Shown here: piece by piece, positions 46,378 through 64,000 of the stretch
Layout: each line of letters starts with the position of its first letter
Position numbering within the stretch: the first letter of the stretch is position 1
Source: Gammaproteobacteria bacterium
GTDB lineage: Bacteria; Pseudomonadota; Gammaproteobacteria; Ga0077536
Assembly: GCA_038116745.1 (NCBI GenBank)
Contig: JAYODW010000004.1
Location: forward strand, 50,408 to 114,407
Length of the DNA stretch: 64,000 bases
Direction of reading: 5' to 3'
Position numbers and translations under genes: made by a program
The notes under the pieces: generated by a model
What the model saw: only the letters and a program-made list of their open reading frames with translations
Databases searched by the model: none
Told to the model about the DNA's origin: nothing

Positions 46378-47325
46378 TCAGCTGCGCAGGCGCCCGCAGC
46401 GATACCCGAGCCGCGGGAAATGCACATGAACCCGTCCCGTTCGCGGCCCGTCGGTCGCAAGCACGATGCGCTGCTTATCGATAACCACCAGCTCACCACT
46501 GGCCGGTGTGTCCTGGTTGTCGAGCGGCATCACCCGCACTCGGTCACCGGGCTCTAAACCCTCCGGAGAAAAATCACCAGCCGAGTCATCAGGCAATGTC
46601 GCTGGTTCGGCAGATCGGGCCACATCCAGTGCTGCGGCGGGATCGAATGCCTCCATGACGCCGTGACCGATTGCCGCCACACGGGCCATCCACGCCCGCA
46701 GCCGTGGCAGCCCGGATGGCAGGGCTTCTTTCCCGCCAATGGTCTGCAGAAACCAGGGAGCTTCGTAGAGCGCGAAATCCGCCAGTGTCGGCGTTGGGCC
46801 CAGCACCCAGGTGCGACCGTCTGCGAAGAGGGACTCGATCTTTTCAAGCTGTGGGCCAATCTGCGGCAGGTATTTCTGCGCGGACGCCCGGACCTGCGCC
46901 TCGCTGGGACACGGCTTACCGTGCAGCCGGGCGCGATCAGCATGAAACGCCGCCGTGAATCGCGCGGCGTGAACCCCGGTGATGTAGAGCGCGAGCGGCC
47001 GGCACACGCTGTGCTCGGCCCAGTAAACCAGCGCGTCGAGCTGGGTCCGACCCGCTGGATTATCGTCGGGATAGATCGAAGGCACCGGTGCAAGAGACTC
47101 AAGCCGATCTGCAATCAGCTGGGTGTCACAGTACACATCGGCCCCGATCTGCAGGGCCGGTGTGCGCCGGTACCCGGCGGTCAGCGGGGTGTAATCAGGC
47201 TTGGGCGCATAGGCGGGAATGTCGACCGAGCGCCACCCGAGCCCCTTGAGACCCAGTACCAGTCGTACCTTCTCCGAGTAATTGGAGAAGTCGTAGTGGT
47301 GCAGGATCAGCTCGGACGGCGCCAC
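46378..47325 (-). CDS. glutathione S-transferase family protein with C-terminal extension
   Basis: GST N-terminal thioredoxin-like segment (LILHHYDFSNYSEKVRLVL). About 90 extra C-terminal residues. Confidence 0.6.
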   Translation of the reverse strand: MAPSELILHHYDFSNYSEKVRLVLGLKGLGWRSVDIPAYAPKPDYTPLTAGYRRTPALQIGADVYCDTQLIADRLESLAPVPSIYPDDNPAGRTQLDALVYWAEHSVCRPLALYITGVHAARFTAAFHADRARLHGKPCPSEAQVRASAQKYLPQIGPQLEKIESLFADGRTWVLGPTPTLADFALYEAPWFLQTIGGKEALPSGLPRLRAWMARVAAIGHGVMEAFDPAAALDVARSAEPATLPDDSAGDFSPEGLEPGDRVRVMPLDNQDTPASGELVVIDKQRIVLATDGPRTGRVHVHFPRLGYRCGRLRS

Positions 47326-47334
47326 CGCGTACAG

Positions 47335-48123
47335 TTACAGGCTGCCCAGGAAATCATCCAGCGCGCGATTGAAGTCTTCCGGCACTTCGAGGTTCGAGAC
47401 GTGCGCGGCGTTCAGCTCGACGTAGCGCGAGCCTGCGACGCGGGCGTGCATGTCCTGCATCGCCACCGCCGGCGTGCCGGCATCGTGCGTGCCGGCGATG
47501 AAGAGCAGGGGCGTGGTAATCCCGGCGATCTGCTCAAGATAGTCCAGCGCCTTGATCGCGCCGCAGCAGCCCAGGTAGCCATCCAGCGGTGTGGCGCGGA
47601 CCATCGCCCGGACCGCGTCCATCTGCGCCGGCCGGGCCTCGCGGGTCGGTGCCGTGAACCAGCGCTCCAGCGTCGCGTCCAGAATCGGTTCCAGGCCGCT
47701 GGCGCTGACCGCGCGGATGCGGTCATCCCATATCTGGCGCCCCTCTGGCGGAAACCCCGCCACGCAGTTCGCCGCAGTCAGGGAGAGGAGCCGCTCGGGA
47801 TGGGTCAGCCCCAGTCCGAGCGCGGTCATGCCGCCCATGGACAAGCCACAGAAGTGAAATTTTTCCACCCCGAGCGCTTCCGCCAGGGCCGCGGCATCGT
47901 CAACCAGATCGGCAAAGCTGTACGGCCCCGGCGGCACCTCAGTCTGTCCGTGACCACGCTGGTCATAGCGCACCACGCGGTAGCGATCGCGCAGGTGCTC
48001 AGCCTGCGGCGCCCACATCTCGAGGTTGGCACCCAGGGAATTAGACAACAGCAGCACCGGTGCGTCGGCCGGCCCGTCGACCGCGTGGTTGATGCTGATA
48101 GTGCGTGTTTTGATTGTGCTCAT
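47335..48123 (-). CDS. pcaD: 3-oxoadipate enol-lactonase (alpha/beta hydrolase)
   Basis: 262 aa with GLSMGG nucleophile. Overall pattern typical of PcaD. Confidence 0.7.
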   Translation of the reverse strand: MSTIKTRTISINHAVDGPADAPVLLLSNSLGANLEMWAPQAEHLRDRYRVVRYDQRGHGQTEVPPGPYSFADLVDDAAALAEALGVEKFHFCGLSMGGMTALGLGLTHPERLLSLTAANCVAGFPPEGRQIWDDRIRAVSASGLEPILDATLERWFTAPTREARPAQMDAVRAMVRATPLDGYLGCCGAIKALDYLEQIAGITTPLLFIAGTHDAGTPAVAMQDMHARVAGSRYVELNAAHVSNLEVPEDFNRALDDFLGSL

Positions 48124-48128
48124 GCGTC

Positions 48129-49217
48129 TTACTCTCCAAGCTGCCGGTTCACCGCCGGCATCACTTCTTCGGCCATTAATTCCATCGAGCGGCGCGACAG
48201 CTGGACGTCAGCCCAGTCATGCCCGGCATACACCAGCGTGCCGAAAGCACCGACTTCCTCACGCAGGGCGAGGATCTGCTCGGTCACCTGCTCAGGCGTG
48301 CCGCAGATAACCAGAGAGTTCATCACAAACTCGTGGGTCACTTCGGCGTCCGGCATATCGCGGCGATTCTTGAACAGGTCAGGGCGACCGTTGCCGATCA
48401 GTTTCCGCATCAGGCTGCGATAGTAGTTGCCATAAGGACCGTCGGGATCCATGGCATAGGCGCGTGCGGTTTTCTCATCTTCAGCCACGAAAATACTCTT
48501 CGCCACCCGCCACTGCCCGACGTCAGGCTCCCGTCCGCTCTCCGCCCAGCCCTCGAGCAGCTTGTCCCAGTGCGTCCTGACCCAGGCCGGCTGGAGAAAA
48601 TTGGCAGAGATGATCGACCAGCCGTGGCTGGCAGCGTTCGACACCGAGTCGGAATATGGCGACATGCACGCCACTACAATAGGCGGATACGGCTTCTGCA
48701 GCGGTCCCAGAATGGCGCCCTGCCCGATCTCTAGATCCATGGTGCGTCGCGTGGTCACCTCCCAGAACTCGCCCTTGAGGTCGTAGGGGGCCTCGCCGTC
48801 CCAGATTGCCAGCACCTGGGCGATGGCTTCGTGGAACATCGCCTTGCGATCGCGGTCCAGATTACCGAAGACCTCGGCATCAGAGCGCAGCCCGCCAGGA
48901 CTGATCCCGAGAATAAAGCGGCCAGCGAGCATGTGATCGACCATCGCGACCTGAGCGGCAACCGCGGCAGGATGGCTGTTGGGCAGGTTGATAGTGCCGC
49001 TGCCGAGACGGATCTGCTTGGTGTGATAGGCCAGGCTGGCCAGAAAGATCAGGCAGGAGGTGATCGTTTCCGCCTTGTCGGTGACGTGTTCGCCGACAAA
49101 GGCCTCGTGAAAGCCGAGACTGTCAGCAAGCAGGATCGCCGCCCGATCTTCAGCCAGTGTGATGCTGTAGTCGCGCGTGATCGGATGCAGCGGCATGGTG
49201 AAATAACTGAGCTTCAT
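48129..49217 (-). CDS. LLM-class flavin-dependent monooxygenase/oxidoreductase
   Basis: Luciferase-like pattern (FHEAFVGEHV, ICGTPEQVTEQI). Confidence 0.8.
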   Translation of the reverse strand: MKLSYFTMPLHPITRDYSITLAEDRAAILLADSLGFHEAFVGEHVTDKAETITSCLIFLASLAYHTKQIRLGSGTINLPNSHPAAVAAQVAMVDHMLAGRFILGISPGGLRSDAEVFGNLDRDRKAMFHEAIAQVLAIWDGEAPYDLKGEFWEVTTRRTMDLEIGQGAILGPLQKPYPPIVVACMSPYSDSVSNAASHGWSIISANFLQPAWVRTHWDKLLEGWAESGREPDVGQWRVAKSIFVAEDEKTARAYAMDPDGPYGNYYRSLMRKLIGNGRPDLFKNRRDMPDAEVTHEFVMNSLVICGTPEQVTEQILALREEVGAFGTLVYAGHDWADVQLSRRSMELMAEEVMPAVNRQLGE

Positions 49218-51463
49218 GATGTAGTCCCGTGGGAATCGTCAGCGTTGAAAGATGAGTTTTTTCGCGCGCGATACTCGGCCGCGGACAGCGCCGCCTGGTA
49301 GCGCGCATAGGCCGCCTTGCGATCCGGTGGGGCCGCTGCAGCGGCGTCGAAGGTCGGCGCGAGGTCCGGGGGGTAGCAGCCGAGCTTCTGCTCTGAGGCC
49401 CCCATCGGCGCGCGGAACACCAGCTCGCGCACGTTCGTCCGGCGCGCTTCGATAACCTGACCGTTTTCGTCGCTGTCTAGATCCCACCACCATTTCTTCA
49501 GCGGGTTGATACGCCCATTTCCGACCCGGTCGTCGAGCGCTGCAATCCAGCCGCGCGTGAACGGCAGGTGCATCGCGGACCACAGAAAGGGCCGCTCCGC
49601 GAGCACGCCTTCGATGTTCCACGGGCAGGTTTTCATACAGCGCCCGCACATCGAGCCGGCGGCATTGGTAATGCGGTAACGCGCGCATTTTTCGACGTCG
49701 GGCTTCCACATCTCGTAGCCGTTGAACATGATCTTGTCGCCGAAAGGGATCGCCGCACAGGGACATTCGCGCGCGCATTTGCTGCACTTGTTACAGAAAT
49801 CCTGCAGGCCGAAGTCGATCGGTTGATCCACCGCCAACGGCAGGTCGGTGGTGATGATCCCGGACTTGAAACGCGGCCCGACGAACGGGTTCAGCACCAG
49901 CTCGCCGATCCTCGAGAGCTCGCCCAGGCCGGAATTGAGGATCAGCGGAATGTGCAGTACATCCTGGTCCATCACCGAATGCCCGCGTGCGCCATAGCCG
50001 AGACGCCGGATCTGGGAGCCGACCACGCCGCCGAGCAGCTGCGCGCGCATGTAGGCGCGCATCGATTGCGCGCCCGAGATCCAGTCGTCACCGCTCGCGC
50101 CCTCCATGGTTTCGTAACCCTGGTCGATCAGGATCACGATGGCATAGCGGTGATACGGCTCGATGGGAGAACCGTCGGTGTCGTGGGAGTACCAGGCATA
50201 GTCGGGCACGCGACAGATCCCGACCATGTCCGCCCCCAGGTAATACAGCGCCGCCTTGACGAGTTCTGCATTGCGCTTCGGATCGTCATAGCCCGGCGTC
50301 CGCTCCGGCGCCGTCTCACCGTATTGCAGCGGCACCATCCCGCCCAGCACCGGCACCATGGCGTGGCCGAACGGGGATTTGGTGATCATGCGAAAACCTT
50401 TCAGCTCACGCTGCGCCTTCTCTCCCAGGTCGCCCATGGCGGCGCGGATAAACATATCGTGGCGCTTGGGCACCCGCGGCACCGCCTGTTCATCCACCAG
50501 GGTGGTGGGCTCGGCCACTCGCTTCACGCGCTCCATGGGATACCGCCCGAGGTGATAGTCGCGCCCGCGGTATGGCTCGCCGGCATATCCGGGGCGCGCG
50601 CCGCCCCAGCCCAGCCACCATTTGAATCCGCGCGCCGATCCACTGCCGGCGGCCAGCGGACCGGCATCCTCCAGCGCAAGCGTGGTGCTCACCGCGACCA
50701 GTCCGAACCGCCGGCCGACAAAAGGGTTCCCGGATCCGCCGTCACGTTGTTCAGCAAGTCCGGCCGCCAGCGCCAGCGCGTCAAGATCAAGCTCAGCCGC
50801 GGTCACGGTATGCAGCCGCGCGTCGAAACCCAGCATGCGCAGGTAGTTGGCCATGACCGCTCCGACCTCGGCACCGCGCAGTGCGGCGCGGGCGGCCTGC
50901 ATGTCGAGGATCCAGTCGGCGCCGGGCTCATCGGCGCGCGGGTCGCGCGGGTACTCAGTCAGGATGACCAGCGCGAACGGATGCTCGCAGCGCTCCTCTT
51001 CAACCGCGGACCGCGCCCAGGCTTCGCGTCCCTCGGCCACCACGTTCTCGGCCATCCGGTTGTCCGCCGCGCCTGGGGCGTAGGTGCGCGCCTGCTCCTC
51101 GGCCAGCGACACATTGGTGACGGGGACAGTGAGACGGGCGGCCTCCGGGACCCGACAGGTGGCTGCCATACTCGCATCCAGGTAATAGCAACCGCCCTGC
51201 AGGTGACGGCTGCGCTCCAGCGGCGAGTCCGGGATGGGCGCCACTGCGGGCGCCACCGGTCCGTTGCGCATCCGGTCCATGAGATCGATGTAGTCGCGCA
51301 GCACGTTGCGCAGGGAGCCGGGGCGCTGCGGCGCCTCCAGCTCGAAGGGAGCGGCAGGCGACCCCGTCGGCGGCACAGCCGCACCCGCGGCGCGTGGAAG
51401 TCGCTCCAAAGGAAAGCTACCGGCCCAGGCCGGACGTCGACGATGGGAGAACAGACGAACCAT
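49214..51463 (-). CDS. reductive dehalogenase homolog (cytoplasmic, NpRdhA/BhbA-like 'catabolic' type), cobalamin + 2x[4Fe-4S]
   Basis: C-terminal CNKCSKCARECP (CxxCxxCxxxCP) and CARYRITNAAGSMCGRCMKTCP ferredoxin-type motifs. About 750 aa with no TAT signal. The 4-nt overlap with the downstream LLM gene suggests an operon. Confidence 0.7.
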   Translation of the reverse strand: MVRLFSHRRRPAWAGSFPLERLPRAAGAAVPPTGSPAAPFELEAPQRPGSLRNVLRDYIDLMDRMRNGPVAPAVAPIPDSPLERSRHLQGGCYYLDASMAATCRVPEAARLTVPVTNVSLAEEQARTYAPGAADNRMAENVVAEGREAWARSAVEEERCEHPFALVILTEYPRDPRADEPGADWILDMQAARAALRGAEVGAVMANYLRMLGFDARLHTVTAAELDLDALALAAGLAEQRDGGSGNPFVGRRFGLVAVSTTLALEDAGPLAAGSGSARGFKWWLGWGGARPGYAGEPYRGRDYHLGRYPMERVKRVAEPTTLVDEQAVPRVPKRHDMFIRAAMGDLGEKAQRELKGFRMITKSPFGHAMVPVLGGMVPLQYGETAPERTPGYDDPKRNAELVKAALYYLGADMVGICRVPDYAWYSHDTDGSPIEPYHRYAIVILIDQGYETMEGASGDDWISGAQSMRAYMRAQLLGGVVGSQIRRLGYGARGHSVMDQDVLHIPLILNSGLGELSRIGELVLNPFVGPRFKSGIITTDLPLAVDQPIDFGLQDFCNKCSKCARECPCAAIPFGDKIMFNGYEMWKPDVEKCARYRITNAAGSMCGRCMKTCPWNIEGVLAERPFLWSAMHLPFTRGWIAALDDRVGNGRINPLKKWWWDLDSDENGQVIEARRTNVRELVFRAPMGASEQKLGCYPPDLAPTFDAAAAAPPDRKAAYARYQAALSAAEYRARKNSSFNADDSHGTTS

Positions 51464-51492: not shown

Positions 51493-53100
51493 TCAGCTAC
51501 CTGGCGTCATCACCAGGTCAATGACAGCGGCGGTACCGGCCGCAAATGCGCTTTCGAGCGCGCCTTCGAATTTGCCCGTGTGCTCCACCCGGGCGCCGAA
51601 GAGCCCGAAGGTCCGCGCCATGGCCGCGAAATCGGGGTTGGTCAACTCGGTGCCCAGAGGACGTCCGGGATAATGACGGTCCTGGTGCATTTCAATCGTG
51701 CCGTAGCGGGCGTTATTGAATACCAGGATTAGCGGCCTCGCGCCGTACTTAGCCGCAGTGGCCAGCTCCATCCCCGTCATGAGCATACCGCCGTCGCCGA
51801 CGCAGCCGATCACCTGACGCTCGGGCAGCGTGAGCGCGGCGCCTATGGCGCTGGGCACACCGTGCCCCATCGCGCCGTTAACCGGACCGAGCAGACGACC
51901 AGGTCGACGGTACTGGCGGTAGCGGTGCGGCCAGACGGTGAAATTGCCGGCGTCGATCGCCACTACCGCGTCGTCGCGAAGATGGCTGTTCAGAATCTGC
52001 ATGACTGCATGCGGATCGAGCGGTTCCCTGCCGCGCTCGCGCTCGAGGCTGGCGCGATAGGCTGCATTAAGACGCTGGCACCAGGGCACGGTGTCCGCGC
52101 GCACGCCGGGTGCGGCTGCGGCCAGCGCTGCGCTCGTCGCTTCGATATCCGCCACCACCGCAATCTGTGGGGAATAATTCACACTGAGCTCGCGCGCCTG
52201 GGGGTAGACGTGGATCAGCGTGCGCTCGCGCCCGTCATTGAACAGGGTGTACCCCAGCGTCGTCGGCTCGTCGAGACGCGCGCCCAGCACCAAAACACAA
52301 TCTGCCTCGGCTGCAAGCTCTGTCGCCTCGGGATGGGCGTTGTAGCCCAGGTAGCCGGCATAGCAAGGATGCCGGTTGTCGAAACAATCCTGGCGACGGA
52401 AGGCCGTCATCACCGGAATCACATGAGCCTCGGCAAAACGCACCAGGTCGGCGACGGCGGCGTCGGTCCAGGTGCCGCCGCCGGCAATGATCAGCGGCCG
52501 CTCAGCCTGCGCCAGCGCCGCACGGATGCGACCGAGGTCGTCCGCGCCCGGGCCAGCCGCAGCCGCCGGGGCGACTCGTGGACCCGCCTGCGTGGTTGCT
52601 TCAGTCAGCACATCTTCAGGTAATGCCAGCGCCACAGGCCCCGGACGCCCGCTTTCCGCAATGCGAAACGCGCGGGCAAAAGCCGCGCCCAGGTCGTCGG
52701 CCTGCTCGATCTGCTCAACGTGCTTGACCAGCTGCGGCAGCAAGCTGGTGTAGTCCAGCTCCTGAAAGGCCTCGCGACCTAAATGGCGGCGCGACACCTG
52801 GCCGATGCCGATCACCAGCGGGATCGAAGCCTGCTGCGCGACATGCAGAGCTATCGTCGCATTGGTTGCACCCGGGCCACGGGTGACAAAGACGACGCCA
52901 GCCCGCTGCCGCAGCCGTGCATTCGCGCAGGCCATGAAGGCGGCGCCGCTTTCGTGCCGACATGAGATGTAGCGGATCTGATCCTGCGCGCCGTAAAGCC
53001 CGTCCAGTACCGCGAGATAGCTTTCGCCGGGCACGCCGAAGACGGTATCAACCCCCTGCTCCAGCAACGCCGCGACGACCTGTTCACCGCCGCTGCTCAT
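51493..53100 (-). CDS. thiamine pyrophosphate-dependent enzyme (acetolactate synthase/benzoylformate decarboxylase family)
   Basis: TPP_enzyme N/M/C architecture and GDGG TPP-binding motif (GCVGDGGMLMTG). Confidence 0.8.
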   Translation of the reverse strand: MSSGGEQVVAALLEQGVDTVFGVPGESYLAVLDGLYGAQDQIRYISCRHESGAAFMACANARLRQRAGVVFVTRGPGATNATIALHVAQQASIPLVIGIGQVSRRHLGREAFQELDYTSLLPQLVKHVEQIEQADDLGAAFARAFRIAESGRPGPVALALPEDVLTEATTQAGPRVAPAAAAGPGADDLGRIRAALAQAERPLIIAGGGTWTDAAVADLVRFAEAHVIPVMTAFRRQDCFDNRHPCYAGYLGYNAHPEATELAAEADCVLVLGARLDEPTTLGYTLFNDGRERTLIHVYPQARELSVNYSPQIAVVADIEATSAALAAAAPGVRADTVPWCQRLNAAYRASLERERGREPLDPHAVMQILNSHLRDDAVVAIDAGNFTVWPHRYRQYRRPGRLLGPVNGAMGHGVPSAIGAALTLPERQVIGCVGDGGMLMTGMELATAAKYGARPLILVFNNARYGTIEMHQDRHYPGRPLGTELTNPDFAAMARTFGLFGARVEHTGKFEGALESAFAAGTAAVIDLVMTPGS

Positions 53101-53137: not shown

Positions 53138-54109
53138 TCACGGTGCCAGAATGGGAATGCTGAGTTCAGCGCGATCCTCGAGATGCAGATGCGCCGCAGC
53201 GGCATCGGCAAGCGCAAAACGTTTGACCGGATGCGGCCGCAGAACGCCTGCATCCAGCGCCTCGAACACGCGCCCGGCGCTCAGCTCGAGCTCGGCGCGT
53301 TCGGCAACGTAATCGTTAAGACGCGGACGCGTCAGATAGAGCGATCCCAGGCGCGACAGTCCCAGCACATCGTAGGGGTCCGGCTTTCCGGAAGCGTTGC
53401 CGTAGGCAACCATGAGGCCGCGGCGACGCAGGCATTCCAGTGATTTCTCGAACGTGTCTTTCCCGACCGAGTCGTAGACCACATCCACGCCGCGTCCGCC
53501 CGTCATCGCCTTCACCTGCTCCACGAAGTCGTCCTGCTGATGCAGCAACACCTGCTCCGCTCCGGCCTCCCGCGCCGCGGCAAACTTGCTCTCGCTGCCG
53601 ACGGTGGCGATGACCCGAGCGCCCAGGTGTCGCGCCCACTGCACCATGAGCAGACCCGTGCCGCCGACCGCCGCATGGACAATGACGGTTTCATCCGGCT
53701 GCACGGCATGCAGCCGGAACAGCAGGTATTCGGCCGTCATAGCGCGGGTCAGGGTCGCGGCCACAACATCAGGATCAACGCCGTCCGGAATGCGGACCAC
53801 CTGATCCGCGCGGATCACCCGCCTTTCACAGTAGGCCCTGGCGACTGAACCGTAGGCCACCGTATCACCCTCAGCCAGCTCACTTACCCCTGGACCAAGT
53901 GCTTCAACCACCCCCACCGCCTGGTCGCCGATCACGGCCGGCAGGGGAATGGGATAAATGCCACGACGGAAATAGGTGTCGATGTAGTTGACCCCGATCC
54001 CCGTGTGACGGATGAGCACTTCGCCCGGGCCCGGGCTGCCCAGATCGATTTCGGACAGGGTCAGCTGTTCAACGCCGCCATAGGCGTGAATGACAATAGC
54101 GGGGGTCAC
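53138..54109 (-). CDS. qor: NADPH:quinone oxidoreductase (MDR/zinc-ADH superfamily)
   Basis: Qor pattern (MTPAIVIHAYGG..., AAVGGTGLLMVQWA). Confidence 0.85.
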   Translation of the reverse strand: MTPAIVIHAYGGVEQLTLSEIDLGSPGPGEVLIRHTGIGVNYIDTYFRRGIYPIPLPAVIGDQAVGVVEALGPGVSELAEGDTVAYGSVARAYCERRVIRADQVVRIPDGVDPDVVAATLTRAMTAEYLLFRLHAVQPDETVIVHAAVGGTGLLMVQWARHLGARVIATVGSESKFAAAREAGAEQVLLHQQDDFVEQVKAMTGGRGVDVVYDSVGKDTFEKSLECLRRRGLMVAYGNASGKPDPYDVLGLSRLGSLYLTRPRLNDYVAERAELELSAGRVFEALDAGVLRPHPVKRFALADAAAAHLHLEDRAELSIPILAP

Positions 54110-54177
54110 GCGTGTTCTCCGGGTGTGTGGTCAGCCGAGTATACCCGCGCGGCATGGGGCCTGATTCCCTGCAATGC
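53969..54177. repeat. direct repeat copy 1 (about 209 bp; qor 5' end + upstream region)
   Basis: About 97% identical to 55711..55919 (4-5 mismatches by eye). Confidence 0.8.
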
Positions 54178-55710: not shown

Positions 55711-55919
55711 GAAATAGGTGTCGATGTAGTTCACCCCGATCCCCGTGTGACGAATGAGCACTTCACCCGGGCCCGGGCTGCCCAGATCGATTTCGGACAG
55801 GGTCAGCTGTTCAACGCCGCCATAGGCGTGAATGACAATAGCGGGGGTCACGCGTGTTCTCCGGGTGTGTGGTCAGCCGAGTATACCCGCGCGGCAAGGG
55901 GCCTGATTCCCTACAATGC
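55711..55919. repeat. direct repeat copy 2 (about 209 bp), containing a 47-codon qor 5' fragment (55711..55851, minus)
   Basis: Duplicate of 53969..54177. Encodes MTPAIVIHAYGGVEQLTLSEIDLGSPGPGEVLIRHTGIGVNYIDTYF with no continuation. Confidence 0.8.
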
Positions 55920-55948
55920 GGGCGCCAGCAACTGCCGGAGAGCCATCC

Positions 55949-56539: not shown

Positions 56540-56990
56540 GGCCCTCAGGCAAGCGCCGGCATCACCTGAGCGACGATCAGCTCGCGTGGGCGCATCAGGT
56601 CCGCATGTCTCACATCGCCGGTAGCGATCTGCGCAGGCAGATAAGTCGCGCCCGCCTGCTCAGGCTACGACAGCAGCTCATCAGCGATCCTTTGCGGCGA
56701 AACGCACACCGTCACGCCGATCTCGCGAGCGGTTTCAAAGTTGTACAGCGGACCGAGCCGGATACGGCTGGTCGCCTGAGTGACTGCAGCAAAAACACTG
56801 AAGGACAGGATCCCACTCCAAGCGGCGTGCCGTGATGTTCCGCCAGGTGGTAACCCCGATAGCCGCCGGCCTCGGCAGCCTGGATGACTTCAATACGGTC
56901 AGCCAGGGGGCGCGCGTGCCCACGGCTTCTAATCGAAGTGGTCAAAAATTCCAAACTGCACGCGTTCTCATCCTTGCTGTCGGGTGTCTT
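56540..56990 (-). pseudogene. remnant of an LLM-family monooxygenase gene (internal deletion/frameshifts)
   Basis: Minus-strand frames encode an N-terminal LLM motif (...AGGYRGYHLAEHHGTPLGV) and a C-terminal LLM motif (...VCVSPQRIADELL, compare ICGTPEQVTEQIL in 48129..49217) only about 350 bp apart. Confidence 0.45.
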
Positions 56991-58060
56991 CAGGCGCCCG
57001 TCGGACGCTTCCAGATACCGCGCTCGACCATCAGCGCAATCTGCCGCTCCGTCACCTCCCGCGCGTATTCCGCGTGGTCCATCGGCGCGCGCTCGGCATA
57101 CAGGTTTTTCGGGTAGATGGGCCGTTCGTAGATCAGCTGGATCATCTCCGTACGCAGATCCTTCATCCAGTTGGTCCACTTGGAATGCGTTCGATGGTGA
57201 CGCAACGCCTCGATGTTGACCGGACCGCAGACGCTGGTTGAGACCCCGCCATAATCCTGCCGGCCGACTACCTGACCGCGATAATCCACCAGCATGGAGT
57301 GCCCGCCAAAGGTATCGATGGGCGCTTCTGAATCGGCATCGAGATAATAGGTGCCGAGGTTCGGCGCCAGCACGTAGAAGTTGTTGTCGAGCGCACGGGC
57401 GCGGGTCTGGATCTCGAAGTAATCATTCGACGCGGCGGGGTGCGGGATCGATGCGCGGTACACCAGCTCCGCACCGTTCATTGCCAGACCGCGCGCGTGT
57501 TCCGGGTAGGACCCCTCGTTAGCCATCATGATCCCGAGCCGGCCGATAGGCGTGTCGACTACCGGCCAGAACGCATCGAGGCTGCGCCCGTAGCGTTCTA
57601 TCCACCAGTCAAACACGTCATGCGGGCACATCGAGTGCTCGACCGGATACAGGGGCGCAACCTTGTAGTGCTGCAGGATGACCGCCCCATCAGGATCGAT
57701 GATGAAGCCGACGTTGAAGAAACGCTCGGGCCAGTCGGGGTGTCGCGCCTTGGCCTGCGCCATGAGGTAGACCCCGTACTCGCGCGCGATCGCGCCCAGT
57801 GCGTCGGTTTCGGGGCCCGGGATATCGATCGCACAGGTACGCGCGTAGATCGCGTGGTCCAGATCCAGTACTTCGTCGTTGAACGCCTGCAGCGCGCCCT
57901 CGGGTAATGCGATTAGGCGCACCGGCAGGTCCAGGCCCGCAAGCCAGCAGGCGGCTTTAATCATGTGCCGCTGGTGCTCGATGTTGCGCAGGATGTCCGT
58001 CCGCTCGCGGATCCCCCACACGGTGGGGACCAGGCCAACGGCGTTATACGGTTCGATCAT
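56990..58060 (-). CDS. carbon-nitrogen hydrolase, aliphatic amidase/formamidase (AmiE/AmiF)-like, catalytic Cys replaced by Ala
   Basis: Collinear with AmiE: Glu (LIALPEG) and Lys (HYKVAPLYP) conserved. The nucleophile position IICDDGNYPE is MMANEGSYPE here. Confidence 0.75.
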   Translation of the reverse strand: MIEPYNAVGLVPTVWGIRERTDILRNIEHQRHMIKAACWLAGLDLPVRLIALPEGALQAFNDEVLDLDHAIYARTCAIDIPGPETDALGAIAREYGVYLMAQAKARHPDWPERFFNVGFIIDPDGAVILQHYKVAPLYPVEHSMCPHDVFDWWIERYGRSLDAFWPVVDTPIGRLGIMMANEGSYPEHARGLAMNGAELVYRASIPHPAASNDYFEIQTRARALDNNFYVLAPNLGTYYLDADSEAPIDTFGGHSMLVDYRGQVVGRQDYGGVSTSVCGPVNIEALRHHRTHSKWTNWMKDLRTEMIQLIYERPIYPKNLYAERAPMDHAEYAREVTERQIALMVERGIWKRPTGA

Positions 58061-58242
58061 CGTGAGATTCTCCGACTGCCGCGTGAGGTCGCAGCCCCTG
58101 GGGATGATAGCGCCCTGCCCGCCCGCGACGCGGACGCTGCCGGCGCGGTTTCGCTGAACGGCGCGATCTGCGAATCTAGCGCGCCCCGCTCATGAATCAT
58201 TACCTCGCGGAACCCGGTCGCCGGCTGCCCAAAGGAAAGCGC

Positions 58243-59301
58243 ATGCGTCAGTTCGAATTTTCCATGCTGCCCTGGAACGTTGTCTTCGGTGCCGGCGTTC
58301 TGGCGTCCTTGCCGCAACGCCTTGATCAGATGCGCCTGCAGCGCGCCCTGGTGCTCTCGACGCCAGAACAGCAAGGAGATGCGGAGCGTGTACAGGCCCT
58401 GCTCGGCCAGCGCGCAGTCGGCTGCTTCTGTGACGCACGCATGCATGTTCCGGTCGAGGTGGCCAGCGCCGCGGCAGCAGAGGCAGCACGGCTTGAGGCT
58501 GATTGCTCGGTCTCCGTCGGTGGCGGTTCCACGACCGGGCTCGGGAAGGCGCTGGCGCTGAACAGCAGCCTGCCGCTGATCGCCATTCCGACCACCTACG
58601 CCGGCTCCGAGATGACCACAATCTGGGGCATGACCGAAGATGGACGCAAGCGCACCGGCCGCGATCCCGCCGTTCTCCCCCGGCTGACGCTCTATGACGC
58701 CGAACTGACCCTCAGCCTGCCGCCCGCAATCGCTGGTCCCAGCGGCATGAATGCCCTCGCGCAGGCCACGATCAACGCGCAGGACCCCCGTACCAATCCC
58801 ATCGTCATGACGCTGGCGCGGGAGGCTATCGCCGCCATCGCCAGCGGCCTGCCGCGGGTCATGCGCACGCCGGAAGATATTGATGCCCGCGAACAGCTGC
58901 TCTACGGCGCGGCCCTCGCCGGCGCCTCGCTCGGTGCCGGTGTAACCAGCCTGCATCACCGTCTCTGCCACACGCTCGGCGGCAGCTTCAATACACCTCA
59001 TGCGGAGACCCACACTATCCTGCTGCCTTACACGGTCGCCTACGCCAGTGACGCTGTGCCTGAGCTCATGGCAGCCATCGCTGCTGCCCTCGGCAGCACG
59101 AGCGCGGCCGGCGGGATCTATGATCTTGCCGCGAGCCTGGGCCTGCCGACCTCACTGACCTCAATCGGCATCAGAACGACCGACCTGGCGCGGATCGCGG
59201 ATCTCGCGACGGAGGCAGAGGTCAGCAATCCGCGTCCGGTCACTCGTGACGGTGTGCTTGCGCTGCTGCAGCAGGCCGTCGCCGGTCAACGCCCTGATTG
59301 A
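58243..59301 (+). CDS. maleylacetate reductase (iron-containing alcohol dehydrogenase family)
   Basis: Fe-ADH fold matching the maleylacetate reductase pattern (FGAGVLASLP...). Start ATG 58243 has an AAAGGAAAG RBS. Confidence 0.75.
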   Translation: MRQFEFSMLPWNVVFGAGVLASLPQRLDQMRLQRALVLSTPEQQGDAERVQALLGQRAVGCFCDARMHVPVEVASAAAAEAARLEADCSVSVGGGSTTGLGKALALNSSLPLIAIPTTYAGSEMTTIWGMTEDGRKRTGRDPAVLPRLTLYDAELTLSLPPAIAGPSGMNALAQATINAQDPRTNPIVMTLAREAIAAIASGLPRVMRTPEDIDAREQLLYGAALAGASLGAGVTSLHHRLCHTLGGSFNTPHAETHTILLPYTVAYASDAVPELMAAIAAALGSTSAAGGIYDLAASLGLPTSLTSIGIRTTDLARIADLATEAEVSNPRPVTRDGVLALLQQAVAGQRPD

Positions 59302-59328: not shown

Positions 59329-59958
59329 ATGATCGATCTCTACACCTGGTCCACGCCGAATGGCCGCAAGGTGTCCATCATGCTCGAGGAGCTGGGCATC
59401 GAATACGCGGTGCACAGCGTCAATATCAGCCAGGACGAGCAGTTCACGCCGGAATTTCTCGCCATCAGCCCGAACAACAAAATCCCGGCGATTGTGGACC
59501 GCGACAACGAACTGTCGCTGATGGAGTCGGGGGTCATTCTCATGTACCTCGCAGACAAACACGGCCGCTTCCTGCCGCCTGCAGGTGAAGCGCACTGGCG
59601 CACCATCGAGTGGCTGATGTGGCAGATGGGCGGCGCCGGACCCATGCTCGGTCAGGCGCATCACTTCGTGCACTTCAATGCGGACAAATCCGAGTACGCC
59701 AAAGAGCGCTACCGCAACGAGGCGGATCGACTCTACGGCGTGCTCGATCGCCGGCTGGCGACACAGGCCTACATGGCGGGCGCGGACTACACTATCGCGG
59801 ACATGGCGACCTGGCCCTGGATTGCGCGCTTCCAGTGGCAGGGCGTCGATTTTCCGGCCTACCCGAACGTGCTGCGCTGGTATCGCGAACTGGCTGACCG
59901 ACCGGCCGTACAGCGCGGCTATCGCGTTCCGAACGACGCTGAGATCCCATTTCCATGA
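59329..59958 (+). CDS. glutathione S-transferase (YghU/YfcG-like)
   Basis: GST N- and C-domains. 209 aa. Confidence 0.85.
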   Translation: MIDLYTWSTPNGRKVSIMLEELGIEYAVHSVNISQDEQFTPEFLAISPNNKIPAIVDRDNELSLMESGVILMYLADKHGRFLPPAGEAHWRTIEWLMWQMGGAGPMLGQAHHFVHFNADKSEYAKERYRNEADRLYGVLDRRLATQAYMAGADYTIADMATWPWIARFQWQGVDFPAYPNVLRWYRELADRPAVQRGYRVPNDAEIPFP

Positions 59959-59980
59959 CGCACCGATAACGGGCAGGCAG

Positions 59981-60295
59981 GTGGAGATCGCGACCTACGA
60001 AATCACGCTGCGTCACGCTGGACTCGAACCGATCCGCTTTGCCGCGCCCGCCGATCGCTCCATCGTCAAATCCGCCCGTGCAGCGGGTTACGCCCTGACC
60101 ACCGGCTGTCTACAGGGACGCTGCGCCATCTGCCTTTCCCGCCTGCTCGCCGGGGAGCTGAAAGTGATCCGACGACCGTCGCGCCACGCCGTGGGTGACC
60201 CGCTCAAGCGCGCTGATGGCTGCGTTCTGCCGTGTTCACTGGCGCCTGACTCCGACGTTGAACTGGAGACGCTCAGCCCCTGGACGTCATGCTGA
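59981..60295 (+). CDS. [2Fe-2S] ferredoxin (oxygenase electron-transfer component)
   Basis: GTG 59981 (VEIATYEITL...). Cys pattern C-x4-C-x2-C...C (GCLQGRCAICLS...GCVLPC). The track ORF 59678..60295 is the same frame running open across the GST gene. Confidence 0.6.
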   Translation: MEIATYEITLRHAGLEPIRFAAPADRSIVKSARAAGYALTTGCLQGRCAICLSRLLAGELKVIRRPSRHAVGDPLKRADGCVLPCSLAPDSDVELETLSPWTSC

Positions 60296-60506: not shown

Positions 60507-61625
60507 GTGAGCAGCAAATTTCTGGAAGACGCCTGGTACGCCGCCGCCTGGAGCGACGAGGTCGGAACCGGGCTTTTTGAGCGCACGATTATCGATCGGT
60601 CTTTCGTTTTCTACCGAGACCCGGCCGGCGTCGCGCAGGCGTTCGACAACGCCTGTCCGCACCGCTCCGCGCCGCTCAGCATGGGAAAGCTGCACGGCGA
60701 TGTGATCGAGTGCCCCTATCACGGCTTACGTTTTGACCGCGACGGTCAGTGCGTTCTCAACCCTCACGGCAACCAGAAAATCCCATCACGTGCCCGAGTG
60801 CGAAAATATCCCCTGCTCGAGCGCCACGCCATGCTGTGGCTATGGCCCGGCAACTCCGAGGCGGCGGACCCGGACAAGATCCCGGATTTCTCGTGCCACA
60901 CCGATGACCGCTTTCCAACCGTCAAAGGCGTCATCGAAATGCATGGCTATTACGAGCTCATCACGGACAACCTGATGGATCTGACCCACGTCGAGTTCGT
61001 GCACGAGGGGATCCTCGGTTCCGACGCAATCAAGCGCGGTGAACACCAGGTCCTGCAGACTGGTACCACCATCTGGTCAAACCGCTGGTGCCCCGACGGG
61101 CTCGCGCCGCCGGCCTGGGATGCCATGTTCGACCACTACGGCAAGCCCGTCGACCACTGGCTCTACATGCGCTGGGACGCGCCGGCCCACATGCTGCTCG
61201 ACGTCGGCATCACCCCGACCGGGGAGTCCCGCGACGCCGGGATCTGGATGTACGGGACAGATATCCTGACCCCGCGGGACAGCGGCAGCACGTACTACTT
61301 CTGGGGCTGCTCGCGCTCCTATGACATTGATAACCCAGCTGCCGGCGAAGCCTGGGAGCGTGCGATTGACGGTGCTTTCGTGCAGCAGGACAAGCCCATG
61401 ATCGAAGCGCAGCAGCGACTGATCCGTCAGCGCGGCGGCGAAGACATCGACGACGTTGACTCTATTGCACTGCAAACCGACTCCGGCCCGGTGCGCTGCC
61501 GACTGGCGCTGCGCAAACTTCTCGCCGCCGAAGGTGCCGCGCGGATCCCGGACCCACGGAACCCGGCGCTGAGCCGCCTGCTCGATGACGCCCGGCGCGA
61601 AACACGCATCGAACCGGTCGTTTGA
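60507..61625 (+). CDS. Rieske non-haem iron oxygenase alpha subunit, VanA/phthalate family
   Basis: Rieske CPHRSAPLSMGKLHGDVIECPYHGLRF. VanA-like N-terminus (FLEDAWYAAAWSDEV). GTG 60507 lies 9 nt after AAGGGAG. 372 aa. Confidence 0.85.
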   Translation: MSSKFLEDAWYAAAWSDEVGTGLFERTIIDRSFVFYRDPAGVAQAFDNACPHRSAPLSMGKLHGDVIECPYHGLRFDRDGQCVLNPHGNQKIPSRARVRKYPLLERHAMLWLWPGNSEAADPDKIPDFSCHTDDRFPTVKGVIEMHGYYELITDNLMDLTHVEFVHEGILGSDAIKRGEHQVLQTGTTIWSNRWCPDGLAPPAWDAMFDHYGKPVDHWLYMRWDAPAHMLLDVGITPTGESRDAGIWMYGTDILTPRDSGSTYYFWGCSRSYDIDNPAAGEAWERAIDGAFVQQDKPMIEAQQRLIRQRGGEDIDDVDSIALQTDSGPVRCRLALRKLLAAEGAARIPDPRNPALSRLLDDARRETRIEPVV

Positions 61626-61697: not shown

Positions 61698-62195
61698 ATG
61701 ACGACACCCACCCGCTTTGCCACCACCGAGGACTTCGACAAAGGAGGCGTCGAGATCATCGGCGACGATGCCGCACCTCGCTACCTGTTCAGCAACATGT
61801 TTGAGGTAGCCAGCAAGTCGCCCCCCTGGGAGCGTGTGGTCATCGCCAGGAACCTTGAATTCACCGTCGAATGCGCGCGCGCCGAAGGCAGCTCCCCGTG
61901 GTACGTCTGCGCCCACGACGAAACCGTGCTGTGCATGCAGGGTGCGGTGGAGATCAAGTTTCTGAAACCGGAAAACGATGCGCTGCCGGAAGCCGATACC
62001 GCTGGCGCAGTGCGCCTTGAGGCTGAGCCGACGGGACAGGCCATGGGCTACGCCCGGTTGAAACGCGGCCATATGGCGCTGCTGCCGGCCGGCGCGGCCT
62101 ATCGCATCACCGCGACGGGCGTCGGCGTGCTGCTGCTGCAGTCGCTGCTCGGCGCCGAGTCACGCGAGCGATGGGCCACCATCTGCCAGCACTGA
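61698..62195 (+). CDS. cupin domain protein
   Basis: 165 aa with a cupin motif 2-like segment (GHMALLPAGAAYRI). Confidence 0.4.
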   Translation: MTTPTRFATTEDFDKGGVEIIGDDAAPRYLFSNMFEVASKSPPWERVVIARNLEFTVECARAEGSSPWYVCAHDETVLCMQGAVEIKFLKPENDALPEADTAGAVRLEAEPTGQAMGYARLKRGHMALLPAGAAYRITATGVGVLLLQSLLGAESRERWATICQH

Positions 62196-62233
62196 ACCGC
62201 GTCAGACACAAACACTAAGCGGGAGCCCGCAGC

Positions 62234-63250
62234 ATGACGACAGCAAACCCCACCACCACCCCGACACTGACCATCAACGCGACCGACCACAGCGCCCGGC
62301 TGGACGAGCGTTACGGCTACCAGGTTTTCAGCATCGGCAGCTATACCTTCCAGCGCGATGAATACTTCGTCCGCGTGAGCTATCCGCGCGGCACCTATGT
62401 CGCCGACGTTGGCGCTTTTCTGCGCGCCATGATGCGCGACGTCGCGTGGGGCTTTTTCTACGGCTGGGTCAACTTCGACGACGTCTTCGGCACCGTCAAC
62501 CACTACGGCTCGGTCGATGTGTTTGTCGGCGCCTATAACGCGGGCTACAAGGCCGCCGGCACTGATTTCACCGAACGTTTCGACGCCAACAAGCTGCTCG
62601 CGTGCTTCCGCGCGCTGCTCTCCGACTGGACCAACGCCGGCTACGACCCATTCGCGGCACCGCTCGAAACCGGCTCGCCCTATGGCTCGAAGAACGGCAA
62701 CAACGATGACGCGGTCAACTTTCAGCGCGAGCTGGCCGAGCGCTTCGTCGGCCTGCCCGGTGATTCGGAGCTGCGCACTGATGCGCGCGGCTTCCCCATC
62801 AACCGTCAGTTCGCGGACGTTGAGCAGGACGAGCCGGAAGTGCACTGCGAGCCTGGTTTCGAGGGCGAGCTGTCCGCGTTCAGCCTGTTTGCCTACCTGT
62901 CGCGCTCGCCGGTGACCTGGAACCCATCGATCGTCTCGGTGGTCGGCGAAAGCGCCTACTGCCCGACCTCTGAGGAACACATCCTGCCCATCCTGCACGG
63001 CAACGATCGGGTGGAGTGGTTTCTCCAGCTGACCGATGAAATCACCTGGCAGATCGCCGACAAGAACACCGCCGCGCCGCGCGCCATCGTGACGATGAAA
63101 GCCGGTGATGTGTGCGCCATGCCGGCCGACATTTCTCACCGCGGCTACTCGCCGAAGCGCTCCATGCTGCTGGTATGGGAAAACATGACGCCGGGACTCG
63201 AGCAGCGCTACGCCAGCGGCGAGCTCGCGCCGACCGCAGCTGAGTTCTGA
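62234..63250 (+). CDS. hypothetical protein with C-terminal cupin-like metal site
   Basis: 338 aa. Possible His/Glu/His ligands (ILHGNDRVEWF...MPADISHRGYS). N-terminal half has no recognisable family. Confidence 0.4.
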   Translation: MTTANPTTTPTLTINATDHSARLDERYGYQVFSIGSYTFQRDEYFVRVSYPRGTYVADVGAFLRAMMRDVAWGFFYGWVNFDDVFGTVNHYGSVDVFVGAYNAGYKAAGTDFTERFDANKLLACFRALLSDWTNAGYDPFAAPLETGSPYGSKNGNNDDAVNFQRELAERFVGLPGDSELRTDARGFPINRQFADVEQDEPEVHCEPGFEGELSAFSLFAYLSRSPVTWNPSIVSVVGESAYCPTSEEHILPILHGNDRVEWFLQLTDEITWQIADKNTAAPRAIVTMKAGDVCAMPADISHRGYSPKRSMLLVWENMTPGLEQRYASGELAPTAAEF

Positions 63251-63311
63251 GCGCTGCGGTCGACCGGTCACCACCACATCGCTCCGCCCCGAAACCGCAA
63301 AGGACCCACCG

Positions 63312-64000
63312 ATGGCCCTGCAACCCCAACATGTTGACCTTCAGTCCCTGCCGCGTGACCTGTTTATCGGCGGCGAATGGGTTGAAGGCCTGGCCGGTGC
63401 CCGCATTGCGGTGCATAACCCGTTTGATAACCAGGAGATCCTGAGTATCGCCGAGGCGCGCGCGGAGGATGTCGACCGCGCGGTTGCCGCTGCGCGGGCC
63501 GCGTTTCCCGCCTGGTCCGCCATGCCAGCCGCCGAGCGTGCCCGCCTGCTGCACAAACTGGTTGAACGCATGGAAGCCGGCTTCGACGAGCTGGCGGAGC
63601 TTGAGGCTATCGATACCGGACACCCGATCCGCGACACGCGCTTTCTTGACGTACCGCGCACGCTGCTCAACTTCCGCTATTTCGCCGGCATGGCCGACAA
63701 AATCGACGGGCGCCAGGTGCCGGTCGAACCCGGCTTTCTGAACGTGGTGAAACGCCATCCGGTCGGCGTGGTCGGCCAGATCGTGCCGTGGAACTTCCCG
63801 CTCATGTTCTGCAGCTGGAAACTTGGCCCGGCGCTGGCCGCGGGCAACACGGTGGTCATGAAACCCTCCGAGATCACGCCGCTGTCGACTCTGCGCCTCG
63901 CACAGATGATGCAGGAGGTCGGTTTTCCCCATGGCGTGGTCAACATTGTGCCAGGCTACGGCCATCTCGCCGGCCAACGGCTGGCTGAGCACCCGGACGT
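63312..64000 (+). CDS. aldehyde dehydrogenase family protein, 3' end truncated by window edge
   Basis: MALQPQHVDLQSLPRDLFIGGEWVEG...VVGQIVPWNFPLMF...MKPSEITPLS, typical of ALDH. The frame is open to the window end. The ORF track omits it because it has no stop. Confidence 0.85.
   Translation, partial: MALQPQHVDLQSLPRDLFIGGEWVEGLAGARIAVHNPFDNQEILSIAEARAEDVDRAVAAARAAFPAWSAMPAAERARLLHKLVERMEAGFDELAELEAIDTGHPIRDTRFLDVPRTLLNFRYFAGMADKIDGRQVPVEPGFLNVVKRHPVGVVGQIVPWNFPLMFCSWKLGPALAAGNTVVMKPSEITPLSTLRLAQMMQEVGFPHGVVNIVPGYGHLAGQRLAEHPD

Follow-up and report, generated by a model that had tools for sequence, protein, structure and literature searches.

A probable hydroquinone-degradation supercluster with a catabolic reductive dehalogenase gene in a gammaproteobacterial contig

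A stretch of 64,000 nucleotides (the window) from an uncultured Gammaproteobacteria bacterium (contig JAYODW010000004.1 of assembly GCA_038116745.1, positions 50,408 to 114,407) was analysed for the gene cluster at its right-hand end, in which the gene for a reductive dehalogenase (RdhA) lies beside the genes of a hydroquinone pathway. This locus is probably a vertically inherited, highly plastic chromosomal supercluster that would lead para-hydroxylated aromatics through hydroquinone into the tricarboxylic acid (TCA) cycle, and to which a cobalamin-dependent catabolic RdhA would have been added in this lineage. The addition probably lets brominated and chlorinated phenols serve as food. Every part of the locus comes from a known family; it is the combination of RdhA with a hydroquinone pathway that is undescribed, and literature searches for a cluster of RdhA with a hydroquinone dioxygenase (type I and/or type II) returned nothing specific. 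All 17 genes named in a preliminary description of this DNA were recovered where it had put them (open reading frame (ORF) listing, Pfam and NCBIfam scans), and its idea of a (halo)aromatic catabolic locus is borne out by the RdhA and hydroquinone-pathway homologies and by the co-conservation of these genes in relatives, a lack of which would, by its own criterion, have refuted that idea. Its gene layout was right in content, except that an amidase-like gene and a pseudogene of a luciferase-like flavin monooxygenase (LLM) had been placed among the plus-strand genes, both being located on the minus strand.

The plus strand carries the following genes of the hydroquinone half.
58192-59301, plus strand: maleylacetate reductase (MAR; PDB 3JZD, 3W5S and 3HL0 at 1e-98 to 5e-105)
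59329-59958, plus strand: Nu-class (YfcG/YghU-like) glutathione transferase (GST; PRK13972, 2e-61, under the cutoff of that model)
59981-60295, plus strand: plant-type [2Fe-2S] ferredoxin (Fdx; CX4CX2C...C motif, GTG start, PF00111)
60507-61625, plus strand: Rieske non-haem-iron oxygenase of the VanA/DdmC family, 372 amino acids (Rieske and VanA_C domains; PDB 3GB4, DdmC, 1e-71)
61698-62195, plus strand: small subunit of hydroquinone 1,2-dioxygenase, HqdA/PnpC (5M21_A, 5e-47; 4ZXA_A, 2e-41)
62234-63250, plus strand: large subunit of hydroquinone 1,2-dioxygenase, HqdB/PnpD (5M21_B, 3e-140; 4ZXA_W, 5e-127; PF18191, 5e-52)
63312-64000, plus strand: aldehyde dehydrogenase (ALDH; PF00171), cut by the window end and 499 amino acids long in the contig L081

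The two dioxygenase genes had been recognized before as encoding two cupin proteins, a generic reading that needs correction, as they represent the adjacent small (about 165 amino acids) and large (about 340 amino acids) subunits of a type II hydroquinone 1,2-dioxygenase (HQDO). Their solved matches are HqdA/HqdB of Sphingomonas sp. TTNP3 (5M21) and PnpCD (4ZXA), and HqdB carries the PnpD N-terminal domain (PF18191). The ALDH gene starts 61 bp past HqdB and directly follows HqdB in the related loci L110, L114 and L084 as well (72-86% identity); its product is the putative 4-hydroxymuconic semialdehyde dehydrogenase. Strong homology indicates that HqdAB, the downstream ALDH and the upstream MAR would make up the classical hydroquinone route, via 4-hydroxymuconic semialdehyde and maleylacetate to 3-oxoadipate. 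The generic cupin reading of the dioxygenase subunits had kept this route from being recognized; the genes specify it instead of the hydroxyquinol or chlorohydroquinone route proposed earlier. MAR is 56-78% identical in L013, L106, L103 and L084, and the Nu-class GST 69-77% in L013, L106, L108, L111, L114, L083 and L103. Two metagenome contigs (L081 and L082), 97.4% identical to the window, extend the cluster by about 3.3 kb beyond the right end of the window, completing the ALDH gene and adding an Abhydrolase_3 esterase and a group A flavin adenine dinucleotide (FAD) monooxygenase (best solved match 2,6-dihydroxypyridine hydroxylase, 2e-51). The cluster thus ends at about 67.3 kb in window-equivalent coordinates, since unrelated OmpA and MotA genes come after the FAD monooxygenase.

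The known type II clusters, namely hqdAB of Sphingomonas sp. TTNP3, pnpCDEFG and pnpC1C2DECX1X2 of Pseudomonas, and hapCDEF of P. fluorescens ACB, share with the window the small and large subunit genes followed by a semialdehyde dehydrogenase gene, as well as MAR and ferredoxin genes in the same cluster (PMC6063337; PMC3222310). Unlike in those clusters, the order here is MAR-GST-Fdx-VanA-HqdA-HqdB-ALDH, with a VanA-family oxygenase and a Nu-class GST integrated and a link to an RdhA operon, and the window contains no hydroxyquinol dioxygenase, YciI-like gene or LysR regulator. The lower pathways of pentachlorophenol and lindane degradation (PcpA/LinE, PcpC/LinD, PcpE) also combine reductive dehalogenation, hydroquinone cleavage and MAR, but dehalogenation would here be performed by a B12 enzyme and not by a zeta-class GST. 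PcpC/LinD is the GST of the pentachlorophenol and lindane pathways and acts on halogenated hydroquinones. The GSTs of the locus had been taken as pointers to chlorohydroquinone-type routes; a role as PcpC/LinD-type dehalogenases was rejected, as one is Nu/YfcG-like and the other is an unclassified long GST. A PcpA homologue (PDB 4HUZ, 3e-85) occurs in the locus of L013, L106, L113 and L114; in the window, the PcpA-type gene has been lost and the type II enzyme alone is left, and a search of the window for a PcpA remnant was negative.

RdhA is encoded on the minus strand, in an operon with gaps ranging from a 4-bp overlap to 37 bp.
46378-47325, minus strand: long GST-like protein of 315 amino acids (GST_N_3 and GST_C_2)
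47335-48123, minus strand: PcaD-type alpha/beta hydrolase of the 3-oxoadipate enol-lactonase family (TIGR02427, 274 bits against a cutoff of 255.85)
48129-49217, minus strand: LLM (PF00296, 2e-47)
49214-51463, minus strand: RdhA, predicted to be an NpRdhA-type catabolic reductive dehalogenase with no reductase domain
51493-53100, minus strand: thiamine-diphosphate (TPP) enzyme of the acetolactate-synthase-like PRK08199 group (NF006052, 639 bits against a cutoff of 539)
53138-54109, minus strand: Qor, an NADPH:quinone oxidoreductase of the zeta-crystallin type (ADH_zinc_N and ADH_N; PRK10754, 295 bits, below the cutoff of 348)

RdhA is placed between the TPP and LLM genes of this tightly packed Qor-TPP-RdhA-LLM-PcaD-GST operon and is predicted to bind cobalamin and two 4Fe-4S clusters. 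It aligns over nearly its full length with NpRdhA of Nitratireductor pacificus pht-3B (PDB 4RAS, 3e-189; residues 160-740 and the N-terminus) and scores 194 bits with TIGR02486 (cutoff 160.35). Residues S422, Y426, K488 and R552, which bind the substrate hydroxyl and donate a proton in NpRdhA (PMC7565698), are all identical in the alignment. Similarly, the Fe-S motifs CNKCSKCARECPC and C...CGRCMKTCP align with both NpRdhA motifs, and Fer4_7 and Fer4_16 match residues 557-617 at scores under the Pfam gathering cut-offs. There is no fused reductase ('truncated' subclass), the protein end coinciding with that of NpRdhA, and no gene for an RdhB membrane anchor lies beside RdhA, its neighbours being the LLM and TPP genes. 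This strong homology points to a dehalogenase of the NpRdhA type that would act on ortho-halogenated phenolic compounds. Exact-sequence look-ups of the window RdhA and HqdB gave no match.

NpRdhA, an oxygen-tolerant catabolic enzyme (PDB 4RAS, 6ZXU), thus resembles the RdhA of the window in full-length homology, in the lack of a fused reductase, in its Fe-S motifs and in the four catalytic-site residues, whereas the entrance residues are changed (K307->L, P311->R, F290->M and A419->G). The NpRdhA gene is reported to neighbour those for a ferredoxin reductase and two ferredoxins (PMC10463259), whereas the RdhA of the window belongs to an operon with TPP, LLM and PcaD genes that adjoins a hydroquinone pathway. 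As a catabolic RdhA within a complete catabolic cluster, the case on record is BhbA of the bromoxynil cluster of Comamonas sp. 7D-2, which is likewise an aerobic catabolic enzyme within a cluster running to ring cleavage (PMC10463259). BhbA has a fused reductase, is self-sufficient and plasmid-borne, and feeds a protocatechuate meta-cleavage pathway; the RdhA of the window, in contrast, is reductase-less and chromosomal, and stands by a hydroquinone route.

Among the operon partners, the TPP enzyme finds its best PDB matches in acetolactate synthases (about 1e-65) and is 59-64% identical in L013, L106, L113, L114 and L117. The closest solved relative of the LLM is a type II Baeyer-Villiger monooxygenase (BVMO), 3,6-diketocamphane 1,6-monooxygenase (PDB 4UWM, 1.3e-27). 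The LLM is 79-80% identical in L013, L113 and L114 and missing in L106, and it always has the PcaD-type hydrolase gene next in order. PcaD is 52-65% identical in L013, L106, L113 and L114; its constant neighbour is the BVMO-like LLM, and the locus is without pcaB, pcaC and muconate-pathway genes. Qor is 65% identical in L113 and L114 and missing in L013, L106 and L117, and the long GST-like protein is 58-63% identical in L013, L106 and L113. A further gene may possibly be the last one of the operon.
44317-46362, minus strand: secreted protein of 681 amino acids with no Pfam or NCBIfam match, 15 bp downstream of the GST-like gene
Homologues of this 681-amino-acid protein lie beside the GST-like gene only in L013 (33%) and L106 (50%), which contain RdhA, and not in L113 and L114, which do not; with five loci only, this pairing may be a coincidence.

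The same genes are grouped in four other genomes at 52-88% amino acid identity, which places their grouping beyond chance. In the genome GCA_041984765.1 (L106/L110), reached by anchoring on the DsbA-like gene at the junction of the two halves, the left half consists of an unknown 690-amino-acid protein (50%), GST-like (63%), PcaD (65%), RdhA (78%) and TPP (62%) genes, followed by the DsbA-like gene (71%). The right half continues with a 270-amino-acid unknown protein and a PcpA-type dioxygenase, MAR (74%)-GST (77%)-Fdx (66%), and LysR, ILVD, HAD and TetR genes, and farther to the right with VanA (77%)-HqdA-HqdB (88%)-ALDH (84%) ... esterase-FAD monooxygenase. The contig L013, from a metagenome-assembled genome (MAG), contains TPP-RdhA-LLM-PcaD-GST together with DsbA-like, MAR and GST genes and the PcpA homologue (PDB 4HUZ being a 2,6-dichlorohydroquinone dioxygenase). 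In this closest syntenic relative, RdhA is spread over a pair of overlapping ORFs (4820-5626 and 5547-7214), indicating a frameshift in the MAG contig or a pseudogene. Two further genomes (L113/L111 and L114) show the order Qor-TPP-LLM-PcaD(-GST), DsbA, ... PcpA-like ... GST-(Fdx)-HqdAB-ALDH-esterase-FAD monooxygenase and no RdhA. The HqdB gene of L114 (15516-16506) was called as two pieces of 128 and 211 amino acids, which may reflect a frameshift or a pseudogene, and a ferredoxin-like ORF at about 14.6 kb in L114 was missed by the source annotation.

RdhA is thus present in three versions of the operon, with orthologues 76-78% identical in L013 and L106, and missing in two, L113 and L114, in which the TPP and LLM genes abut and leave no room for it. 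As the latter two loci hold the operon without RdhA, this gene was added to a pathway that was already there, as an optional module within an older operon. The locus of L113 and L114 adjoins a citrate synthase gene that is 80-81% identical to the one at 30530-31846 in the window; the locus is chromosomal and has been inherited within one gammaproteobacterial lineage, in which many genes were gained and lost locally. A horizontally acquired island was considered and rejected: the GC content of the locus (0.62-0.68) is that of the rest of the window except for a 1.5-kb cassette, there is no tRNA gene in the window, and the locus lies by citrate synthase in L113 and L114. In addition, no integrase or transposase was encountered among the scanned ORFs. 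Megablast of the region against plasmids gave only two short matches of 72-74% identity, in the dioxygenase gene, so that the region is not a known catabolic plasmid. A VanA-HqdAB-ALDH unit with MAR also occurs in an organism of 47% GC (L084), beside an HpaB-type phenol monooxygenase.

In a survey of RdhA loci, 80 loci were fetched and HqdAB was sought within 10 kb of RdhA. Two of them (L014 and L023) have a PcpA-like dioxygenase of the halohydroquinone type 2-4 kb from RdhA, an XylR/DmpR-type activator and a multicomponent phenol hydroxylase. Seven loci (L006, L007, L009, L010, L015, L018 and L021 type) display the order DsbA-like-RdhA-HpaB-family monooxygenase-...-intradiol dioxygenase; among them, only L007 and L018 yielded a plant-type ferredoxin, at 43% identity to that of the window. 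The gammaproteobacterial RdhAs closest to that of the window sit in other aromatic clusters, which supports an independent link of this clade to aerobic ring hydroxylation and cleavage. The recurrent MAG cluster, about 3-17 kb in each case, follows the order MMPL/RND-like, DUF1302, DUF1329, DsbA-like, RdhA, HpaB-family, DUF1329, ferredoxin, intradiol dioxygenase, CoA-transferase.

The pathway may be pictured as follows. The core would start with the cleavage of hydroquinone by HqdAB to 4-hydroxymuconic semialdehyde, as strong homology indicates, after which the adjacent ALDH would oxidize this compound to maleylacetate and MAR would turn maleylacetate into 3-oxoadipate. RdhA is predicted, likewise from strong homology, to take off bromine, chlorine or iodine ortho to the phenolic hydroxyl of 4-substituted 2,6-dihalophenols; candidate substrates are dibromohydroxybenzoate, dibromophenol and compounds of the dibromohydroquinone type, the products of which, once dehalogenated, would feed the non-halogenated pathway. 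Peripheral enzymes might convert various para substituents to a second hydroxyl and so yield hydroquinone, an assignment made tentatively. This set would comprise the TPP enzyme, the BVMO-like LLM with the PcaD-type lactone/ester hydrolase, the VanA/DdmC-like oxygenase, and the esterase and FAD monooxygenase beyond the window end. The LLM and PcaD-type hydrolase may be an analogue of HapA/HapB, converting an aryl ketone via an aryl ester to hydroquinone; the VanA/DdmC-like oxygenase may carry out an O-dealkylation or hydroxylation and could, together with the esterase and FAD monooxygenase, handle other para substituents. The plant-type ferredoxin of the MAR-GST-Fdx/HQDO module would most likely keep the Fe(II) dioxygenase reduced and/or pass electrons to RdhA. 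It may have a further role with the Rieske oxygenase, the NAD(P)H reductase being encoded elsewhere. The Nu-class GST, the kappa-GST-like (DsbA-like) protein and Qor might, speculatively, be involved in quinone/glutathione chemistry.

Several points weigh against a single supercluster with a dehalogenase of this function. The reading is based on homology and synteny throughout, from which substrates and activities are deduced. The relatives with the whole layout are related genomes, as their citrate synthases indicate, and co-conservation may partly be inherited synteny instead of selection for joint function. The Qor-TPP-LLM-PcaD operon occurs without RdhA (L113 and L114) and could serve a non-aromatic ketone/acyloin pathway, and PcaD scores as a true enol-lactonase, an activity for which the hydroquinone route has no use. 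Genes for a regulator, a transporter or a reductase did not turn up in the island, nor did pcaIJF, and CoA-transferase genes adjoin it only in L106. HqdAB was found within 10 kb in none of the 80 RdhA loci, and the operon is shared only by L013 among them. Moreover, the substrate range of NpRdhA is not transferable to the RdhA of the window, as the entrance residues K307, P311 and F290 differ (L, R and M). An alternative would be two independent neighbouring units, with an ordinary hydroquinone pathway on the plus strand, a minus-strand operon (Qor-TPP-LLM-PcaD-GST) degrading an unrelated ketone, acyloin or lactone, and an RdhA that landed there with no link to hydroquinone. The resemblance of the TPP enzyme to acetolactate synthases and of the LLM to a camphor-pathway BVMO agrees with this, as do the minus-strand operons of L113 and L114 that lack RdhA, the phylogenetic closeness of the layout-sharing relatives (citrate synthase 80-81% identical) and the absence of HqdAB near RdhA in the survey. 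Yet both halves stay together in five genomes despite local gains and losses of Qor, LLM, RdhA, PcpA, CN_hydrolase, regulators and the cassette, and MAR and a PcpA-type hydroquinone dioxygenase stand right at the junction in L013 and L106. The nearest other RdhA loci also have PcpA-type dioxygenases, phenol hydroxylases or intradiol dioxygenases, and 3-oxoadipate is the product of both PcaD and MAR. Two unrelated units are regarded as unlikely.

A different order of steps is conceivable within the supercluster, although it is rather doubtful. RdhA would then act late, on halogenated hydroquinones such as 2,6-dibromohydroquinone, in the role of the PcpC/LinD GST, and hand plain hydroquinone to HqdAB. 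A 2,6-dihalohydroquinone fits the 3,5-dihalo-4-hydroxy-X pattern recognized by NpRdhA (PMC7565698), K307, which forms a salt bridge to the product carboxylate in NpRdhA, is Leu here, and the closest RdhA genes are accompanied by PcpA-type halohydroquinone dioxygenases. However, PcpA-type and TTNP3-type dioxygenases already take halogenated hydroquinones (PMC3222310), so that prior dehalogenation is not needed, and RdhA stands beside a phenol hydroxylase in L014 and L023, suggesting upstream action on halophenols. A role on hydroquinone substrates would itself be deduced from such patterns. The preliminary description had put forward another model, a chlorohydroquinone or hydroxyquinol route in which the GSTs would dehalogenate and the VanA-like oxygenase with a dedicated ferredoxin would form a three-component O-demethylase like dicamba monooxygenase, the reductase being encoded elsewhere. 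This model is improbable. MAR is indeed present, but the zeta class of PcpC/LinD is represented by neither GST, ring cleavage is assigned to a type II HQDO, and the island is devoid of a hydroxyquinol (intradiol) dioxygenase. As for the oxygenase, its likeness to DdmC was well seen, since DdmC is its closest solved relative, and as in dicamba O-demethylase (DdmABC) there is no fused or adjacent reductase. A reductase, said before to be missing from the window, was indeed detected neither in the island nor in the 20 other window ORFs scanned, and the 7 kb downstream (L081) and the relatives L110 and L111 yielded none either. The match to DdmC is nevertheless distant (245 bits), the ferredoxin next to the oxygenase is of the plant type and is not conserved along with it, and no DdmA-like reductase was found.

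The ferredoxin gene was followed across relatives. It lies directly before the oxygenase gene in the window and in L083, at a distance of 211 bp in the window, where the oxygenase has its own start codon and ribosome-binding site; homologues of the oxygenase are 372 amino acids long, and its translation contains the CPH...CPYH and DNLMDLTHVEFVH motifs (Rieske centre and 2-His-1-carboxylate). In L106, four genes (LysR, ILVD, HAD and TetR, two of them regulators) separate ferredoxin and VanA; in L114, the ferredoxin gene is found in front of HqdAB, with no VanA; and VanA occurs without the ferredoxin in L111, L112, L084 and L085. The ferredoxin itself is 54-66% identical in L106, L114, L083 and L103. 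As it goes with MAR, GST and HQDO across relatives rather than with VanA, it is not specifically the oxygenase's own, and the dicamba-like three-component reading is weak for this reason and for want of a reductase. Most plausibly, the ferredoxin is a carrier that is shared or directed towards HQDO/RdhA; it might also work with the oxygenase, for which there is no specific support. Indeed, pnpC1C2DECX1X2 clusters include a ferredoxin and no Rieske oxygenase (PMC6063337), and reactivation by ferredoxin has been proposed for the oxygen-labile type II HQDO of TTNP3 (PMC3222310). Reductase-less catabolic RdhAs require an external donor, for which a plant-type ferredoxin works in vitro, while reconstitution of NpRdhA with the ferredoxin oxidoreductase and ferredoxins encoded beside its gene failed (PMC10463259).

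The supercluster with an added RdhA bears on the physiological substrates, pathway context and electron donors of reductase-less catabolic RdhAs, as the locus and its relatives put one of them inside a defined aerobic ring-cleavage pathway and supply concrete candidates, including the plant-type ferredoxin, the kappa-GST-like partner and the hydroquinone-type downstream enzymes. If true, it would show how environmental Gammaproteobacteria use halogenated phenolics as a carbon source and would offer oxygen-tolerant parts for bioremediation. Its present status is that of a well-supported annotation and a hypothesis; it establishes no new principle. A bolder reading, to which a low probability is given, would have an uncultured clade of Gammaproteobacteria repeatedly recruit reductase-less catabolic RdhAs into aerobic phenol, hydroquinone and hydroxyquinol pathways to mineralize natural organobromines, with the plant-type ferredoxin of HQDO clusters as their physiological electron donor. 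Were it true, a new aerobic B12-dependent pathway of the type 'debrominate, then cleave hydroquinone' would be defined, with the kappa-GST-like partner gene as a part of it.

The junction between the two halves contains an insertion, a pseudogene and two further protein-coding genes.
53944-54190: left direct repeat (5' end of qor and the qor-dsbA intergenic region)
54693-55382, minus strand: S-adenosylmethionine (SAM)-dependent methyltransferase of the cassette (Methyltransf_23, 7e-12)
55686-55932: right direct repeat (remnant of the qor 5' end and the original region upstream of dsbA)
55916 (probably 55949)-56536, plus strand: kappa-GST/2-hydroxychromene-2-carboxylate-isomerase-like protein with a DsbA fold, an SPY motif and no CxxC (PF01323, 4e-30)
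about 56551-56961, minus strand: pseudogene of a second LLM (residues about 59-270 deleted, frameshifts and stops)
56990-58060, minus strand: CN_hydrolase-fold protein with the nucleophile Cys replaced by Ala (PF00795)

The inserted cassette that had been proposed stands: the methyltransferase gene, missing in all syntenic relatives, lies in a 1.5-kb segment with a GC content of 0.48-0.56, versus about 0.64 in the flanks, between direct repeats of 247 nt. A repeat search and alignment showed these repeats to be 92% identical at a spacing of 1742 nt, with a nearly identical core of about 210 nt. The cassette is a true insertion, because relatives keep qor and dsbA divergent and about 100 bp apart, the arrangement being intact in L113 and L114. 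The duplicated host sequence, at about 210-247 nt, exceeds the target duplications of transposons by far, and no recombinase or attC-like element was seen. The LLM pseudogene was likewise called correctly. In a tblastn search with the intact LLM orthologue of L114, which occupies the same place in the locus, it matched residues 1-58 and 271-339 only.

The DsbA-like protein (homologues of 195-196 amino acids) is encoded at the junction of both halves in L013, L106, L113, L114 and L117. In about 9-10 further MAG loci of Gammaproteobacteria, its gene immediately precedes RdhA, the kappa-GST-like gene and RdhA being a conserved pair in the recurrent MAG cluster. In addition, DsbA-like and Nu-class GST genes are paired next to LigAB-type extradiol dioxygenase genes in the absence of RdhA (L108, 8144-11445; L113, 1085-2813), and this pair seems to be tied to aromatic ring cleavage in general.

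The CN_hydrolase-fold protein had been described as an inactive-looking amidase and taken as a sign of flux. Its catalytic Cys is indeed missing: in the alignment with formamidase 5G3O, CICHDG corresponds to MMANEG, Glu and Lys of the triad being kept. The suggestion of decay did not hold. Homologues lacking this Cys are 70-87% identical across Gammaproteobacteria, Alphaproteobacteria, Acidimicrobiales, Binataceae and Methylomirabilota, and GIMMANEGSYPE, with its Ala, is shared without exception by 13 diverse homologues. The protein is hence strongly constrained, and a decaying gene was rejected. A bromoxynil-type nitrilase was rejected too, as the catalytic Cys is missing. The Cys-less family counts more than 2,300 matches, and its conservation is striking for a supposedly dead enzyme. 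In the window, the gene fills the slot held in relatives by PcpA and a gene for 265-270 amino acids, and it adjoins the DsbA-like gene in another organism (L117). The contexts of Cys-less homologues vary (L115, L116 and L117), comprising a MaoC hydratase, a TonB receptor with a major facilitator superfamily (MFS) transporter, and the DsbA-like gene.

Between 44 and 64 kb, Rfam at the gathering threshold gave no match, including none to a cobalamin riboswitch. A scan for promoters and terminators was uninformative, as it predicted no promoter and found terminator-like sites to be less frequent than in shuffled sequence. Elsewhere, the window holds many genes for oxidative catabolism (8123-9439, 11135-12055, 26115-27938, 35623-37581 and 37665-38741), encoding two more LLMs, a flavoprotein resembling flavin-containing monooxygenases (FMO) and BVMOs, a pyrroloquinoline quinone (PQQ) alcohol dehydrogenase with a cytochrome c domain, a DUF1329 protein, acyl-CoA dehydrogenases and enoyl-CoA hydratases. 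The supercluster thus seems to be situated in a broadly catabolic part of the chromosome.

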